The notes below the pieces were generated by a model. It was not told where the DNA came from and did not search any database. It saw nothing but the letters and a program-made list of their open reading frames with translations. Below, piece by piece: positions 8,499 to 17,210 of a stretch of 64,000 nucleotides of DNA (positions are counted from its first letter, which is position 1; each line of letters starts with the position of its first letter). This DNA comes from a virus. The stretch spans positions 1-64,000 of the IMG/VR virus record IMGVR_UViG_3300035034_001742. One strand, written 5' to 3'. A program made the translations under genes and the position numbers.

Positions 8499-9485
8499 GA
8501 AGTAATGCAAGCATTACTTCAAATTACCTTTCATTCTGCATTGCGTTCGTATTCACTCACTGCATGCATAACTCAGTTAATTTATTAGCTTTATTGATCT
8601 TCTAAGAGAATAGCTTTAATGTTTAAGTTTAATATTTGTTTTTATATTGCTTTTAATTATTAACTACTACATGGCTATTCTTGATTAAGACTGGCTCAGA
8701 ATTCGCTGTTGCCAGCGAAAGTCTAAGAGAAACCACGAACTTGATTCAGCGCGGGCGAAACTAGGCCATTAAACGTGAAGCTTTATTATCGCAACCGAGG
8801 CGGGTATCGTCTTCCTCTTAGTCTATCGTGATTGCGTTCGCAATCAATACCGCTACCTGCTAAAAACCTAATGGCTAGTTAAAAGCAAGCTCCTGTTGCC
8901 GCTCGCCAAGCGAATTGCTTGCTTGATATTTTTATCAGAGCTAGTGTATTCAGTTGGGTCATCACTCTCTTAATTGCAGAGCAGGATCCAATTTACTCGA
9001 GTGCTTTTACATCCTGTGAATCGTCAGTAACGACTGAGTACCGAGCACGGACCCCGGCAAGAAGGATGTATTATGTCAAAGCTATCTCAAGTGTCGAAGA
9101 AACGTTTGTTATCATTGCACGGACATATCCTATGCAGTACGTTCTTCTGTGGCAACCCAGATCATATTTTAATAACCTACACGATCAACTTCTTCGCTAG
9201 GCACAAGGGTGATAATTTCTATTAACAATAGCCTTTCGGCACAGAGCCACTTTTGGTATTCACTCAATTATTTTTTGGTTTATAATTTTGTTGTAATGCT
9301 GTGGACCTAATGTACCTTGCATAACGGTGTACATATATTGGGACTTTAGTAACCTAAACGCTGATTTGTGGACCAGTGTTAACAATGCGTTAATGTTAAC
9401 CCTTGAGGTCTCTGGTATGTTTGATTGTACGATATGTGCATAGGATATAGGCTCGTCAACTCTATAACCGGTAAATTTTGTAACT
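8499..9485 (-). ncRNA. Candidate large structured ncRNA (~1 kb), family not assigned
   Basis: No credible ORF. Many nested inverted repeats, with GNRA loops on the minus strand (GCAA at 8709-8712, GAAA at 9234-9237). A near-consensus sigma70 promoter lies directly upstream and a terminal hairpin at 8499-8520. Confidence 0.62.
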
Positions 9486-9491
9486 TCGAGT

Positions 9492-9520
9492 AGTATACAT
9501 TCGAACGCCGTAACTGTCAA
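9492..9520 (-). promoter_or_regulatory. Sigma70-type early promoter TTGACA-N17-TATACT
   Basis: Perfect -35 box, 17-nt spacer, 5/6 -10 box, A-tract upstream. Confidence 0.85.
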
Positions 9521-9532
9521 CCTCTTTTTTTA

Positions 9533-9540
9533 TATAAATA
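9533..9540 (+). promoter_or_regulatory. T4 late promoter TATAAATA
   Basis: Exact T4 late consensus upstream of the 9598 ORF. Confidence 0.75.
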
Positions 9541-9597
9541 GTAGAAAGTTGCAAATAATTATAATATTCTACTGAGCAAGCAAGGAAAAACTGATCT

Positions 9598-10008
9598 ATG
9601 TCAGATTACGGACACTGGACCCCAAAAAAACAGTTCGATCCTGAAGAGCATTATGGCTTTGTCTATCAGATAAAAAACATGATAACGGGCGAGAAGTACA
9701 TTGGGCAAAAACAGCTATGGTCCAAGTTTAAAAGGCCTCCTCTAAAAGGAAGAAAGAACAAACGTCATGCCACACGCGAAAGCGATTGGAAAAAGTACAC
9801 AGGAAGTTCAACCCGACTCAACGAAGACATTGAACAGTTAGGAAAGGATAAATTTACGTTTGCTATACTAGAGTTATATCAATCCAAGTGGGAACTAAGC
9901 TATGGTGAGTATAGCAAGATCATCAAAGAAGATGCAATCCCTAAAAATGAATATTACAACGGATTTTTAGGGCGCATTGGCGCTTGTCCATCTAAGGCAA
10001 AATACTAA
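9598..10008 (+). CDS. Stand-alone GIY-YIG family nuclease-like protein
   Basis: GFVY-x10-YIG motif, plus ESDWKKYTGSS and YYN. Confidence 0.8.
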   Translation: MSDYGHWTPKKQFDPEEHYGFVYQIKNMITGEKYIGQKQLWSKFKRPPLKGRKNKRHATRESDWKKYTGSSTRLNEDIEQLGKDKFTFAILELYQSKWELSYGEYSKIIKEDAIPKNEYYNGFLGRIGACPSKAKY

Positions 10009-11255
10009 TGAGATTTTTAGATATATTTTTATCGGAAAGCAGGAAGTCCGAATTACTTGCAACACAGCAAGGACCAAAATTGTTGTCCGCATTAAAAAAA
10101 GATAGACTTGCTGACCAATCAATGACTGCTGACCAGTTAACTCTTGAGCTTGAATCAATGGATCCGCTCAAAGGAAAATCATTGCAATGGCTGGTCAACC
10201 GATATGCGGAGGGCAATTTTAAATTAGAAGATGCCCCACGTGTATCAACATCACTATCCGATTTTGCAAAAAAGAAAAATCAACTAGCAAAGAAAGACCT
10301 CAATCAATACCGGTCGTTGTCTGAGCTGGAAGATGCAGTTGAAGATGCAGTTGAAGTGAAAAGTAAAAAACAGCAAAAGGCAGAAATAAAAACCGAAGGT
10401 GCCGATGTGGTATACAAATCGAGTACGTACAGCATTGTTAAATTAAAAACCGAGGAAGCCGCATGTTATTACGGAAAGGGTACCAAGTGGTGCACTGCCT
10501 CTGATAATAACAACATGTTCAATCGATACAACGACGAGGGGCCGATTTATGTAATACTTGATCACGTCAACAATCGCAAGTTTCAGGTGCAGGTGACTAC
10601 TGCTCAATTCATGGATGAAAAAGACGAACCGGTAGATTACCAGCGATTAAGAAAACAGTATCCTGCAATGCAAAAAATTGCTGTACATGATGCTAATGAC
10701 TGGATCAAAGGCGTAGACATCGAAGATCACGAGCAGTTAGCTGACACAATTATACGATTAGCTAACGATGTATTCGGCGGGCGGTGGCCTGAGGCCGAAG
10801 ACGTAATCAGTGAAGATGGTGTGCTGGCATACAACTATGCAATATATATACTCAAACAACCATGGCCAGCAGCCGAAGCCGCCATTGCCGCCGATGCCGG
10901 GGCTGCATACCGGTATGCAAAGGGTGTACTCAAACAACCATGGCCAGCAGGCGAAGCCGCCATTGCAACCAAGCCCATAAGTGCATACAACTATGCAAGT
11001 GATGTAATCAAAGGACCATGGTCAGCAGGCGAAGCCGCCATTGCTACCGATCCCTACTCTGCTTACAACTATGCAAAACGTGTACTCAAAAAACAATGGC
11101 CAGCAGGTGAAGCCGCTATTGCAACCATTGCTGGATTTGCATATCAGTATGCAAGAGATGTAATCAAAAAACCATGGCCCGCAGGCGAAGCCGCTATTGC
11201 ATCCGAGCCTTACTATGCACGCCAATACCAAGAGCGATTCGGAATACAACTATGA
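10008..11255 (+). CDS. Probable head-packaged protein with a PcfJ-like segment and C-terminal 26-aa helical repeats
   Basis: Leader MRFLDIFLSE; segment AACYYGKGTKWCTA...FNRY..EGPIYVI; six AYxYAxxVLKxPWPAGEAAIA repeats. Confidence 0.7.
   Translation: MRFLDIFLSESRKSELLATQQGPKLLSALKKDRLADQSMTADQLTLELESMDPLKGKSLQWLVNRYAEGNFKLEDAPRVSTSLSDFAKKKNQLAKKDLNQYRSLSELEDAVEDAVEVKSKKQQKAEIKTEGADVVYKSSTYSIVKLKTEEAACYYGKGTKWCTASDNNNMFNRYNDEGPIYVILDHVNNRKFQVQVTTAQFMDEKDEPVDYQRLRKQYPAMQKIAVHDANDWIKGVDIEDHEQLADTIIRLANDVFGGRWPEAEDVISEDGVLAYNYAIYILKQPWPAAEAAIAADAGAAYRYAKGVLKQPWPAGEAAIATKPISAYNYASDVIKGPWSAGEAAIATDPYSAYNYAKRVLKKQWPAGEAAIATIAGFAYQYARDVIKKPWPAGEAAIASEPYYARQYQERFGIQL
10770..11235 (+). repeat. 78-bp coding tandem repeat, about 6 copies
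   Basis: CATGGCCAGCAGGCGAAGCCGCCATTGC-like cores start near 10861, 10939, 11017, 11095 and 11173, with a diverged copy near 10783. Confidence 0.9.
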
Positions 11256-12174: not shown

Positions 12175-13317
12175 TTAAACAATAGCAGTTACATCAAACT
12201 CAATGTTAAACTTTGTTTTTAATCTAATTTCTTCGACCAGCGTAGCTTTAATTGCATCAACATGTTCGTTAGTAAATGTTAATCCCATTACAAAATCAAA
12301 ATAACTCACAACATCTTCGTCGTTGAAGTTTTCTATATTTTCAACAAGCCAATCTGTTGTTCTTGTATAATGTGCCTCAGATACCCAGTGATAAGGAATC
12401 CAGCAACACTCTCCACGTTCGAATCTTCTGAACCAACCTTGTATATCATCACTCTGGTGTGTCTTGTGTATAATCTTGTGGCCGTCTTCGCCCATTACAA
12501 TACAGCCTAGCATTTCATTAACATCGGATGCTTCTAAGTTTTTATAAGACATCTTGTTCATGTACGTGCTAGGCTCCTTGCCGTTTTTGTGTACGGACTT
12601 AGCATTGACAAATAAAGCGTGATGAATGGTGTAACTGTTAACAACCTTTTCACGTTGTTCAATATCATTGTAAAGCGATAAGCCTTCACATGATGTTTTG
12701 GTAAATGTATCAAACAATGGGCGTTGATGCATGTTGGCACCATACATTAACACACGCAAGAAGTGACTGTTCTCTTGCCGAAAGCCACGACTACGCTTCA
12801 TTTTAGCAGTTCTTACGTCCGGCGACTTCTGATATGCCAACCGTCCTTTGCTTGAACCCTGGTGACGTATGTGAGTTTCTTTGGTGGCAGGTCGTGTGTC
12901 TTTGCTGGTTATAAAAAAGTCAAAGCGATCTACAATGGTATCGTCTAAGTTCCTGTAGCTTAAATACTTGCATTTGCCGTAAATATAACCCGTATATGAT
13001 GGGTTTTTGTGGTCTGGTTCGCCTGCGTACTGCTCTGCGTAAGCGGCTTTTAAAAGTGCGTTAAAAAACTCTTTATTGGCGTCTATGCCAAGTGGAATAA
13101 TACCCTTATTGATAAAGTAAACAACACCACGCCCTTGTTTAAAAGAGTAGTATTCACGTTTATCAATATCGGCGATATCTTGTGTTTCTTTGCCTAGTAG
13201 GCATTGTTTTGCGAGGTTGTTCAATACAGGGCGTATTGCTTCATTAAAAGCGATCTGACCGTCCATCTCATATAGATTAAAACTTTGGCCATTGAATTGG
13301 TAATCACGAAGTGACAT
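12175..13317 (-). CDS. Hypothetical protein with a possible degenerate HNH nuclease motif
   Basis: YTIHH...EMLGCIVMGEDGHKIIH resembles the HH...CxxLCxNCHxxxH pattern; AAGGA RBS. Confidence 0.5.
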   Translation of the reverse strand: MSLRDYQFNGQSFNLYEMDGQIAFNEAIRPVLNNLAKQCLLGKETQDIADIDKREYYSFKQGRGVVYFINKGIIPLGIDANKEFFNALLKAAYAEQYAGEPDHKNPSYTGYIYGKCKYLSYRNLDDTIVDRFDFFITSKDTRPATKETHIRHQGSSKGRLAYQKSPDVRTAKMKRSRGFRQENSHFLRVLMYGANMHQRPLFDTFTKTSCEGLSLYNDIEQREKVVNSYTIHHALFVNAKSVHKNGKEPSTYMNKMSYKNLEASDVNEMLGCIVMGEDGHKIIHKTHQSDDIQGWFRRFERGECCWIPYHWVSEAHYTRTTDWLVENIENFNDEDVVSYFDFVMGLTFTNEHVDAIKATLVEEIRLKTKFNIEFDVTAIV

Positions 13318-17155: not shown

Positions 17156-17184
17156 ATTTTACTACAGTTTGTGTCCTTTGTCAA
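17156..17184 (-). promoter_or_regulatory. Sigma70-type promoter TTGACA-N17-TAAAAT for gp55-47-46
   Basis: Perfect -35 box, 17-nt spacer. Confidence 0.8.
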
Positions 17185-17210
17185 CCTATTCCATACCAGT
17201 ATTTTTAGTT

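Follow-up and report, generated by a model that had tools for sequence, protein, structure and literature searches.

What, if anything, is encoded by positions 8499-9597 of the phage DNA considered here, the sole ORF-free stretch of more than 400 bp (at an ORF threshold of 70 aa) in a 64-kb window? The window, by which is meant the whole of the DNA analysed, comprises positions 1 to 64,000 of a 79.5-kb IMG/VR contig whose completeness is estimated at ~22%. Its source is an uncultured T4-like jumbo myovirus, and among the genes present are those for a gp26/T4_baseplate hub protein (6926-7768), an ORF of 3416 aa, a Rad50/gp46-like gene and others of that kind. An initial annotation, made from the letters alone, had pointed to a leftward promoter followed by many potential helices and proposed a large and ornate phage RNA. 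The answer reached here is that the minus strand of 8499-9520 is very probably a gene in its own right, with a structured non-coding RNA as its product, and the sections below set out the comparative evidence for this and the other readings that have to be weighed against it.

The phage and the neighbourhood

The hub protein shares 39% identity with its counterpart in Pseudomonas phage PA5oct and 31-37% with those of Phosso, Atu_ph07, EJP2, GAP32 and CBB. Metagenomes from aquatic settings, among them lakes, salt lakes and ice, contain DNA nearly identical to that of the window; the DNA matches are short Logan contigs, and no RNA run is among the listed sequencing runs that match the phage sequence. 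ARAGORN found neither a tRNA nor a tmRNA in the window. To the left, the gap is bounded by an ORF of 170 aa for which Pfam and PHROG gave no match and whose homologs are few, with identities of 73% (P0002), 48% (L011, described below) and 23% (L005, of a sister clade). To the right stands a GIY-YIG endonuclease gene (Table 1), and both its late promoter, TATAAATA, and its start are kept in L011.

Constraint without a coding signature

A metagenome scan with the 170-aa ORF returned one contig, CETA01153548.1 (hereafter L011), in which the gene order is the same: hub gene, short gp51-like segment, 170-aa homolog, gap and GIY-YIG gene. At the DNA level, identity between the two phages is 74% for the hub gene, 59.5% for the 170-aa ORF and 70.4% for 8674-9485, where conservation is patchy, with invariant blocks of 15-26 nt standing between variable stretches.

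Could a protein be the reason for this conservation? That no credible ORF is present had been claimed at the outset, and the comparison bears it out. The longest frames in the gap, 93 aa on the plus strand and 86 aa on the minus, begin with TTG, none of the six reading frames contains a long stop-to-stop stretch, and the frames of the gap in L011 offer no counterpart to those of the window; the sole ORF with the same start in both (9073 in the window, 9093 in L011) is read in differing frames across an invariant block. Divergence between the two sequences is 29-30% at each of the three codon phases of the gap, whereas the three flanking genes differ from their L011 equivalents by 46-57% at third positions and by 10-36% at first and second positions. 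The indels in the gap, of 1, 2, 4, 5, 21 and 27 nt, are not confined to multiples of three and carry no frame signal, and the protein-coding test for a conserved frame and three-base periodicity between window and L011 was negative. The flat divergence across phases, the 70% identity and the mixed indel lengths together imply a region that is constrained but not coding.

The same is seen at much shorter evolutionary distance. Among close variants, Logan contigs from four metagenomes compared over 7900-10100, a tally gives ~11 differences in ~1,290 bases of RNA core and ~52 in ~1,070 bases of flanking coding sequence, i.e. some five times fewer in the former. Four differences within the core can be placed individually: that at 9106 affects an unpaired position and substitutes the base that L011 has, that at 9343 changes a U-U mismatch to G-U, as in L011, and those at 9404 and 9405 are both in an internal loop of the predicted fold. 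As judged by these alignments, purifying selection acts on the RNA region but leaves no sign of coding, and the constraint on it exceeds that on the adjacent protein genes.

A promoter of its own

The near-consensus sigma70 promoter that had been noted firing leftwards from 9520-9492 stands up well. Its TTGACA-17-TATACT matches the consensus at 11 of 12 positions and is the top sigma70-like site within 7800-10200, and it is conserved in L011 as GGTTGACA-17-TATAAT with the 17-nt spacing exactly retained. Two copies of the extended motif GGTTGACA-N16-18-TAWAMT are present in the 64 kb, where 0.00 would be expected, and the second copy (17156-17186) fronts a protein gene. From the position of the promoter the RNA would start at about 9484-9486.

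Anatomy of the RNA

The conserved core so defined would be ~810 nt long (8674-9485), or the whole ~990 nt if the RNA ends at the hairpin at 8499-8520; its predicted parts are collected in Table 1. The 5' domain contains a variable A-rich linker, and in L011 an additional GAAA-capped hairpin stands just past the RNA start. The core module that follows is marked by invariant blocks predicted to be single-stranded, AUCACCCUUGUGCC and GGUUAUU-AAAUAUGAUCUGGGUUGCCACAG, together with a hairpin of variable length. Inside the central rod are UACAUCC/GGAUGUA (9070-9064/9014-9008) and two terminal hairpins, and in the comparison with L011 the rod shows a change of U-G to U-A as well as a compensatory pair. 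Downstream of the core, the tail has islands that are conserved in L011 (AGUGAGUGA, ACGAACG and UCUCUUAGA), and it may belong to the mature RNA. No canonical intrinsic terminator was found after the RNA core; the hairpin at 8499-8520 lies directly behind the stop codon of the 170-aa ORF, is without a following U-run, and is likely to be either the 3' end of the RNA or a terminator that serves both directions.

Table 1. Features of the locus, listed in the direction in which the RNA would be transcribed (window coordinates; identities and compensatory pairs are relative to L011)
Feature	Position	Strand	Remarks
SegE-like GIY-YIG endonuclease gene	9598-10008	+	Pfam PF19835, E 8e-31
T4-type late promoter TATAAATA	9533-9540	+	for GIY-YIG gene; divergent from RNA promoter
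Sigma70-type promoter	9492-9520	-	-35 TTGACA 9520-9515, 17-nt spacer, -10 TATACT 9497-9492
5' domain	9216-9485	-	69.7% identity, 59 gap columns
Hairpin with conserved U-U mismatch	9469-9443	-	one compensatory pair
Hairpin built on GUUAAC	9410-9371	-	in 5' domain
GAAA-capped hairpin, expansion site	9240-9231	-	longer hairpin there in L011
Conserved core module	9083-9215	-	common to three PA5oct loci; models R2, R3
Module helix enclosing hairpin 9136-9116	9147-9139/9105-9096	-	from covariance models
Central rod	8995-9092	-	ACUUGAG/CUCGAGU 9092-9086/9001-8995 outermost
Hairpin with 26-nt invariant block UGGAUCCUGCUCUGCAAUUAAGAGAG	8954-8991	-	A-C mismatch in window is A-U in L011
3' domain	8700-8900	-	six covariation-tested helices
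3'-domain helix	8899-8891/8701-8694	-	invariant
3'-domain helix	8890-8884/8861-8855	-	3 compensatory pairs
3'-domain helix, 10 bp	8875-8866/8774-8765	-	3 compensatory pairs
3'-domain helix	8853-8847/8807-8800	-	better supported than overlapping GAGG/CCUC
3'-domain hairpin	8846-8840/8835-8829	-	3 compensatory pairs
GCAA-capped hairpin	8719-8713/8708-8702	-	2 compensatory pairs
Invariant single-stranded block GAAUUCUGAGCCA..CUUAAUCAAGAAUAG	8674-8699	-	window vs L011
AU-rich tail	8521-8673	-	68.3% identity, 10 gap columns; 29-36% GC
Terminal 9-bp hairpin, G(CUUG)C loop	8499-8520	-	two compensatory pairs
170-aa ORF, baseplate gene block	7986-8498	+	convergent with RNA; outside RNA gene

Several short repeats had also been remarked upon initially. 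Both copies of CTTGATT(A/C)AG are invariant in L011; the two copies of TGTGGACC are not conserved, and of TCTAAGAGAA only one copy is. Further searching for repeats within the region gave nothing beyond short two-copy matches, with neither tandem repeats nor family repeats. CUGAAUCAAG at 8749-8740 is related to the invariant block at the 3' edge of the core. Searches of the region for tetraloop receptors, anti-Shine Dalgarno sequences and similar short motifs found none.

Compensatory change, not folding energy

How good is the description 'highly structured' that the region had been given? In the energy of the single sequence it does not show: the minimum free energy of 8660-9485 has a z score against shuffles of -1.05 on the minus strand and -0.31 on the plus, two sub-domains that have covariation support are at z of about 0, and the only outliers are the 8995-9092 rod (-3.24 minus, -1.22 plus) and the 8499-8520 hairpin (-4.18). 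On the comparison with shuffles that had been put forward as a test of the proposal, the RNA formally fails at the minus-strand value of -1.05, though that comparison is insensitive for large RNAs. Neither the energy of the whole region nor most of the local energies are better than those of shuffles; the evidence for structure is comparative and not thermodynamic, and by covariation with L011 the description stands.

That covariation was assessed by counting helices of at least 7 bp, within a span of 200 nt, which pair in both the window and L011 at aligned columns; outside the module it rests on these two full-length sequences, for which ~250 pairs are predicted. Twenty such helices are paired in both, where column shuffles give 4.8 and none of 200 reached the observed number. 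Local helices with at least two compensatory double changes number six (0.23 expected; 0 of 200 shuffles), and those with at least three number four (0.01 expected; at most one of 200 shuffles); for the helix counts, block-wise shuffles agree with column shuffles. The RNAalifold energy of the pair of sequences is -446 for the minus strand and -419 for the plus, to be set against -324 +/- 10 in column shuffles. The raw number of compensatory pairs reported by RNAalifold, 34-44 against 26-27 in shuffled alignments (26 +/- 3.5), was dropped as a statistic, being uninformative for two sequences.

The 3' domain provides the most closely inspected case. Its six hand-set helices contain 45 pairs, all of which are paired in both sequences with none broken, and 14 of them are changed on both sides, a number reached by none of 500 shuffles; in controls with the helices slid along the alignment 31-44% of positions are paired and 0-2 changes are compensatory. 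Within this domain the helix 8890-8884/8861-8855 crosses 8875-8866/8774-8765, each with three compensatory pairs, which points to a pseudoknot if the two form at once, or else to alternative folds. Many predicted helices, the two that cross included, have thus been kept by compensatory changes.

Most of the helices picked out by eye from the letters have fared well against L011. That at 9378-84/9394-9400 is kept with a U-A to U-G change, 9008-15/9063-70 is kept with one compensatory pair, and the long-range pairing of 8759-71 with 8869-80 is conserved in the refined form of the 10-bp helix of Table 1. TGATTGC/GCAATCA (8846-8829) and TTCGCTG-GCAA-CAGCGAA (8719-8702) are also kept, with three and two compensatory pairs respectively, and GCC-GAAA-GGC (9240-9231) is present at a spot where L011 has its longer hairpin. 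Two others have to be given up: 8883-90/8917-24 is unpaired in L011, 8890-8884 pairing with 8861-8855 instead, and GAGG/CCUC, though it shows a single compensatory change, competes for positions with 8853-8847/8807-8800, for which the support is better.

Which strand?

Most of the helices would pair in either strand. The features that differ between strands, the promoter among them, favour the minus strand as that of the RNA. The lower of the two alifold energies given above is that of the minus strand, and four helices with at least three compensatory pairs are found on it against two on the plus; the z score of the 8995-9092 rod is likewise the better one there (-3.2 against -1.2). Read from the plus strand, three invariant G-U pairs of 8875-8866/8774-8765 would turn into A-C, and U-G to U-A and U-A to U-G changes are seen within 9092-8995 and 9403-9375. 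The minus-strand loops are GCAA, GAAA and G(CUUG)C, and two insertions specific to L011 are hairpins, one of them GAAA-capped. The helix at 8954-8990 had been taken to favour the plus strand; it proves to hold the sole plus-leaning position, where the window has an A-C mismatch and L011 an A-U pair.

Relatives in PA5oct

A covariance model (R2) of 9083-9215, built from the window and L011 only, has a match in the syntenic ORF-poor region of PA5oct with 25.3 bits, at E 5e-4 for 172 kb and 7.5e-6 for 2.5 kb; these E-values, like the others from the short-calibrated covariance models, are rough. A sequence-only profile searched with nhmmer locates the same syntenic site (E 3.6e-6). Two more copies in PA5oct are 83-84% identical to the syntenic one and score 37.0 and 34.5 bits with R2 (E 2.8e-8 and 1.3e-7). 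One of these two, at 246,189-246,334, falls within annotated ncRNA004 (NC_071039.1 246116-246734), a 'putative lncRNA' annotated from RNA-Seq (Lood et al. 2020, PMC7318152). That paper gives ncRNA004 as a transcribed ORF-less region, with no structure, family or function described. Another copy, at 12,938-13,088, sits in a CDS-free gap of 911 bp in an unannotated locus at ~12.83-13.7 kb, and the syntenic copy, likewise unannotated, is at 75.8-76.8 kb.

In the five-sequence alignment of the module the pairing holds in 98.9% of cells, and 14 out of 23 pairs have changes on both sides, a number that none of 500 shuffles reached, the alignment having been fitted to the model in a way that biases such pair counts. 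The module consensus, YUAUCNCC-N-U-Y-GUGC, a hairpin, GUUAUU-N-AAA-UAUGAUYUKGGKUGC and then a helix, is present, and TTGACA-17-TAnnnT is found 79-270 nt upstream of the module copies in this phage and at all three places in PA5oct, where the distance is 79-201 nt; in the case of ncRNA004, 19 nt separate the end of the -10 element from the annotated 5' end. What is common to the loci is hence a ~135-nt module, alike in sequence and predicted structure, in an ORF-free unit of 0.6-1 kb that has its own sigma70-type promoter, and the alignments and the R2 and R3 models (the latter an improved version) make the core module homologous to three such promoter-led PA5oct loci.

The syntenic unit, too, is downstream of the hub gene and on the opposite strand to it. 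It begins at GGTTGACA-17-TATAAT and ends ~965 nt further on (compared with ~990 nt here), at a strong terminator (z -7.3). A very AT-rich tract comes after the unit; the terminator stands between this tract and the RNA. The differences are also plain. No similarity was detected outside the module, the 3'-domain model R1 having found nothing in PA5oct; the syntenic copy is without the second helix of the module; PA5oct has three module copies where one was found in the 79.5 kb of this phage; and its syntenic unit ends at a strong intrinsic terminator, which the window RNA does not.

Known families and wider searches

The search of Rfam that had been suggested initially was run with cmscan against Rfam 15. 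There were no matches at gathering score in the whole window, and at E <= 10 nothing relevant over 8300-9800, where GOLLD, ROOL, OLE and HEARO were all absent from the results. Nor was there an Rfam match to group I or group II introns, RNase P, tmRNA, 6S RNA or rRNA fragments; the check for the exons of a split gene was negative, and the RNA strand is opposite to that of both flanking genes. GOLLD, ROOL and OLE are large ornate RNAs (Kretsch et al. 2025, PMC12286853). The window RNA resembles them in size class (~0.6-0.8 kb or more) and in being a stand-alone non-coding RNA rich in covarying helices. Like it, GOLLD and ROOL occur in phages, but its sequence and helices are unrelated to theirs and it has no tRNA genes nearby. 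The proposal of a large phage ncRNA of the GOLLD/ROOL class accordingly survives in its first half, through the promoter, the covariation, the selection and the homology to the PA5oct lncRNA, and not in its second, as there is no Rfam match and the RNA is not a member of either family.

Very few RNAs of ~1 kb with complex conserved folds are, to our knowledge, known in bacteria and phages, and we are aware of none among GOLLD, ROOL and OLE for which the function is fully settled; the window RNA adds a further family, unrelated to these three.

Searches further afield yielded little. With blastn the region had no match among INPHARED phages, and scans of IMG/VR with the conserved blocks gave no confirmed relative: a block match there (L012) was rejected for having no extended similarity, and another candidate (L028) since it covered part of the module only, at 19 bits, in ORF-bearing DNA. 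A GTDB candidate in a Bacteroidetes MAG (L014) was a chance 21-mer and was also rejected, the other GTDB scan being empty. R1 found the window and L011 only, and when R1, R2 and R3 were run on loci and whole records of the sister clades and of Phosso, Atu_ph07 and EJP2 there was no significant match, the best being 19 bits (E 0.08) in Atu_ph07.

The sister clade merits separate mention. In L005 (6509-7055), L002 and L006, IMG/VR contigs of uncultured jumbo phages with hub proteins 45-47% identical to that of the window, there is an ORF-free, well conserved region which likewise follows the hub gene and a homolog of the 170-aa ORF on the same strand, and in which conserved helices of 7 bp or more number 18 on that strand and five on the other, with GNRA loops. 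It differs in that no homology to the window RNA is detectable (by nhmmer, R1, R2 or R3) and in that its upstream neighbour is a GH108 lysozyme gene.

What might the RNA do?

Host RNA polymerase would transcribe the RNA leftwards from its sigma70-type promoter, probably early in infection, and the transcript from ~9485 would end at or before the 8499-8520 hairpin. The long invariant blocks that stay single-stranded in the predicted fold, with covarying helices to position them, could then serve as binding surfaces for a protein or nucleic-acid partner. This anatomy fits an RNA that acts through its fold, be it a scaffold, a decoy, part of an RNP or possibly a catalyst or self-assembling particle, and it fits a base-pairing regulator less well. 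Our tentative preference, to which we would give not quite an even chance, is that the RNA acts in trans through its three-dimensional fold, as scaffold or decoy, rather than by antisense pairing to a neighbouring gene. A bolder thought is that here is a new class of ~1-kb ornate jumbo-phage RNAs built on a duplicating 135-nt module, being catalytic, or forming an RNA-only particle in the manner of ROOL and GOLLD, or acting as an early decoy for a host defence or RNA-processing factor; as matters stand this is rather unlikely. Of the roles suggested at the outset, nothing was found in support of a ribozyme, and nothing either for a partnership with the GIY-YIG protein or the 170-aa protein: the neighbours of the module are different ones in PA5oct, and a homolog of the 170-aa ORF is present also in relatives without a detected homologous RNA.

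Might the RNA instead be a primer for DNA synthesis? A structured transcript that runs into the AT-rich tract at 8521-8673 could leave an R-loop there, much as with the RNA II pre-primer of ColE1 and the oriF and oriG origins of T4, and the layout of a strong promoter followed ~800 nt later by a tract of 29-36% GC is suggestive, the more so as the PA5oct unit is likewise trailed by a very AT-rich tract. In PA5oct, however, the terminator lies between RNA and tract, so transcripts should stop short of it, and the three dispersed module copies, one of them in an lncRNA without such a layout, are not what an origin would lead one to expect; for these two reasons the role of origin primer is very unlikely. 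The AT-rich tail is moreover the least distinctive part of the locus, its 68% identity to L011 being no better than that of the core, and we know of no T4-type R-loop origin that needs ~800 nt of covarying structure. About as improbable is regulation in cis, with the RNA a long leader or an antisense or interfering transcript for the 170-aa or GIY-YIG gene. The RNA does converge on the 170-aa ORF, with a conserved hairpin common to both 3' ends, and its promoter is back-to-back with the GIY-YIG late promoter, yet a transcript that stops at 8499 overlaps neither coding region, no ORF follows downstream on the minus strand, the neighbours and their orientations differ at the PA5oct homologs, and such a role has no need of ~800 nt of covarying and crossing helices with invariant single-stranded blocks.

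A last reading is that no functional RNA is involved, the region being a decayed gene, the scar of a homing endonuclease, or a packaging or recombination signal with hairpins in the DNA itself. A SegE-like GIY-YIG homing endonuclease gene does adjoin, the folding energy is unremarkable and most of the helices would pair in the complementary strand also. Against this, the region is better conserved than neutral sites and, among close variants, about five times better than the flanking genes; its indels are not multiples of three and there is no frame signal; compensatory changes are far beyond chance; the G-U pairs and GNRA loops are strand-specific; and the promoter is kept in L011 while the ncRNA004 homolog in PA5oct is transcribed. 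A DNA-level or non-functional explanation is the most improbable of those considered.

It is fortunate in this regard that the relatives are in PA5oct, a cultured and genetically tractable phage of P. aeruginosa PAO1 for which RNA-seq data exist, so that expression, structure and loss of function are directly open to experiment. Current annotation passes over the probable RNA gene at the syntenic locus: in 11 records of the PA5oct group the homologous 1-kb locus, at least 99.4% identical among them, carries no annotation at all or else a series of tiny 'hypothetical protein' ORFs, four to six in number, which are probably spurious.

The promoter and the syntenic PA5oct RNA

In the window the −10/−35 promoter of the RNA, GGTTGACA-N17, stands back-to-back with a late promoter, TATAAATA, on the other strand, and this pair is kept in L011, the syntenic metagenome contig CETA01153548.1. 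The extended −35 element, GGTTGACA, is also present upstream of the syntenic RNA of Pseudomonas phage PA5oct. There, four annotated coding sequences, gp338-gp341, fall within the promoter-to-terminator RNA unit of ~965 nt. Four of the 11 PA5oct-group records carry no annotation at all at this locus, and these small ORFs are probably spurious.

Features at the RNA locus, at syntenic sites and in cultured relatives
Feature	Location	Remarks
GGTTGACA-N17 promoter (minus) and TATAAATA late promoter (plus)	window 9492-9540	back-to-back
GGTTGACA-type promoter site	window 17156-17186	second copy of the extended form, in front of a protein gene
SegE-like GIY-YIG endonuclease gene	window 9598-10008	short, 136 aa; nuclease domain only
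gp338-gp341 CDSs, PA5oct	L013 7189-8001 = NC_071039.1 ~75,704-76,516	38-50 aa 'hypothetical proteins'
ORF-free conserved regions, sister clade of uncultured jumbo phages	L005 6509-7055; L002 3036-3674; L006 5015-5654
Annotation gaps or tiny-ORF runs, 0.7-1 kb	L017 8233-9246 (Phosso); L019 7029-7748 (EJP2); L018 6832-7938 (Atu_ph07)

The corresponding site in other phages

A sister clade has an ORF-free region downstream of a GH108 lysozyme gene, at a site syntenic with the window RNA and on the identical strand; its helix conservation is strongly strand-asymmetric (18 versus 5) and GNRA loops are present. No homology to the window RNA was detectable in its three representatives. The gaps of the cultured relatives Phosso, EJP2 and Atu_ph07 sit between the baseplate hub gene and the resolvase/gp46-gp47 block, with an RNase HI gene preceding that of Phosso. 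Since searches of them with the models of the 3′ domain (R1) and the core module (R2, and its improved version R3) gave no significant matches, they may be other RNAs, or nothing.

A degenerate two-block pattern search gave a weak partial module match of 19 bits in IMGVR_UViG_3300020043_005633 (L028 10376-10465), which is probably due to chance because the central UAUGAU..GGKUGC block is absent and the surrounding DNA is ORF-bearing. A weak R2 match in the window itself (58903-59035, minus strand; 16 bits, E 0.13) lies within coding sequence and is regarded as noise.

Flanking genes and segments

The GIY-YIG gene is at the same place in L011, with ~70% amino-acid identity over the part of the gene that the contig covers, and from this conserved position it does not seem to have been inserted recently. 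Among the segments measured, conservation with L011 is highest in the stretch that separates the hub gene from the 170-aa ORF (window 7769-7985; 79.7% identity, 0 indels).
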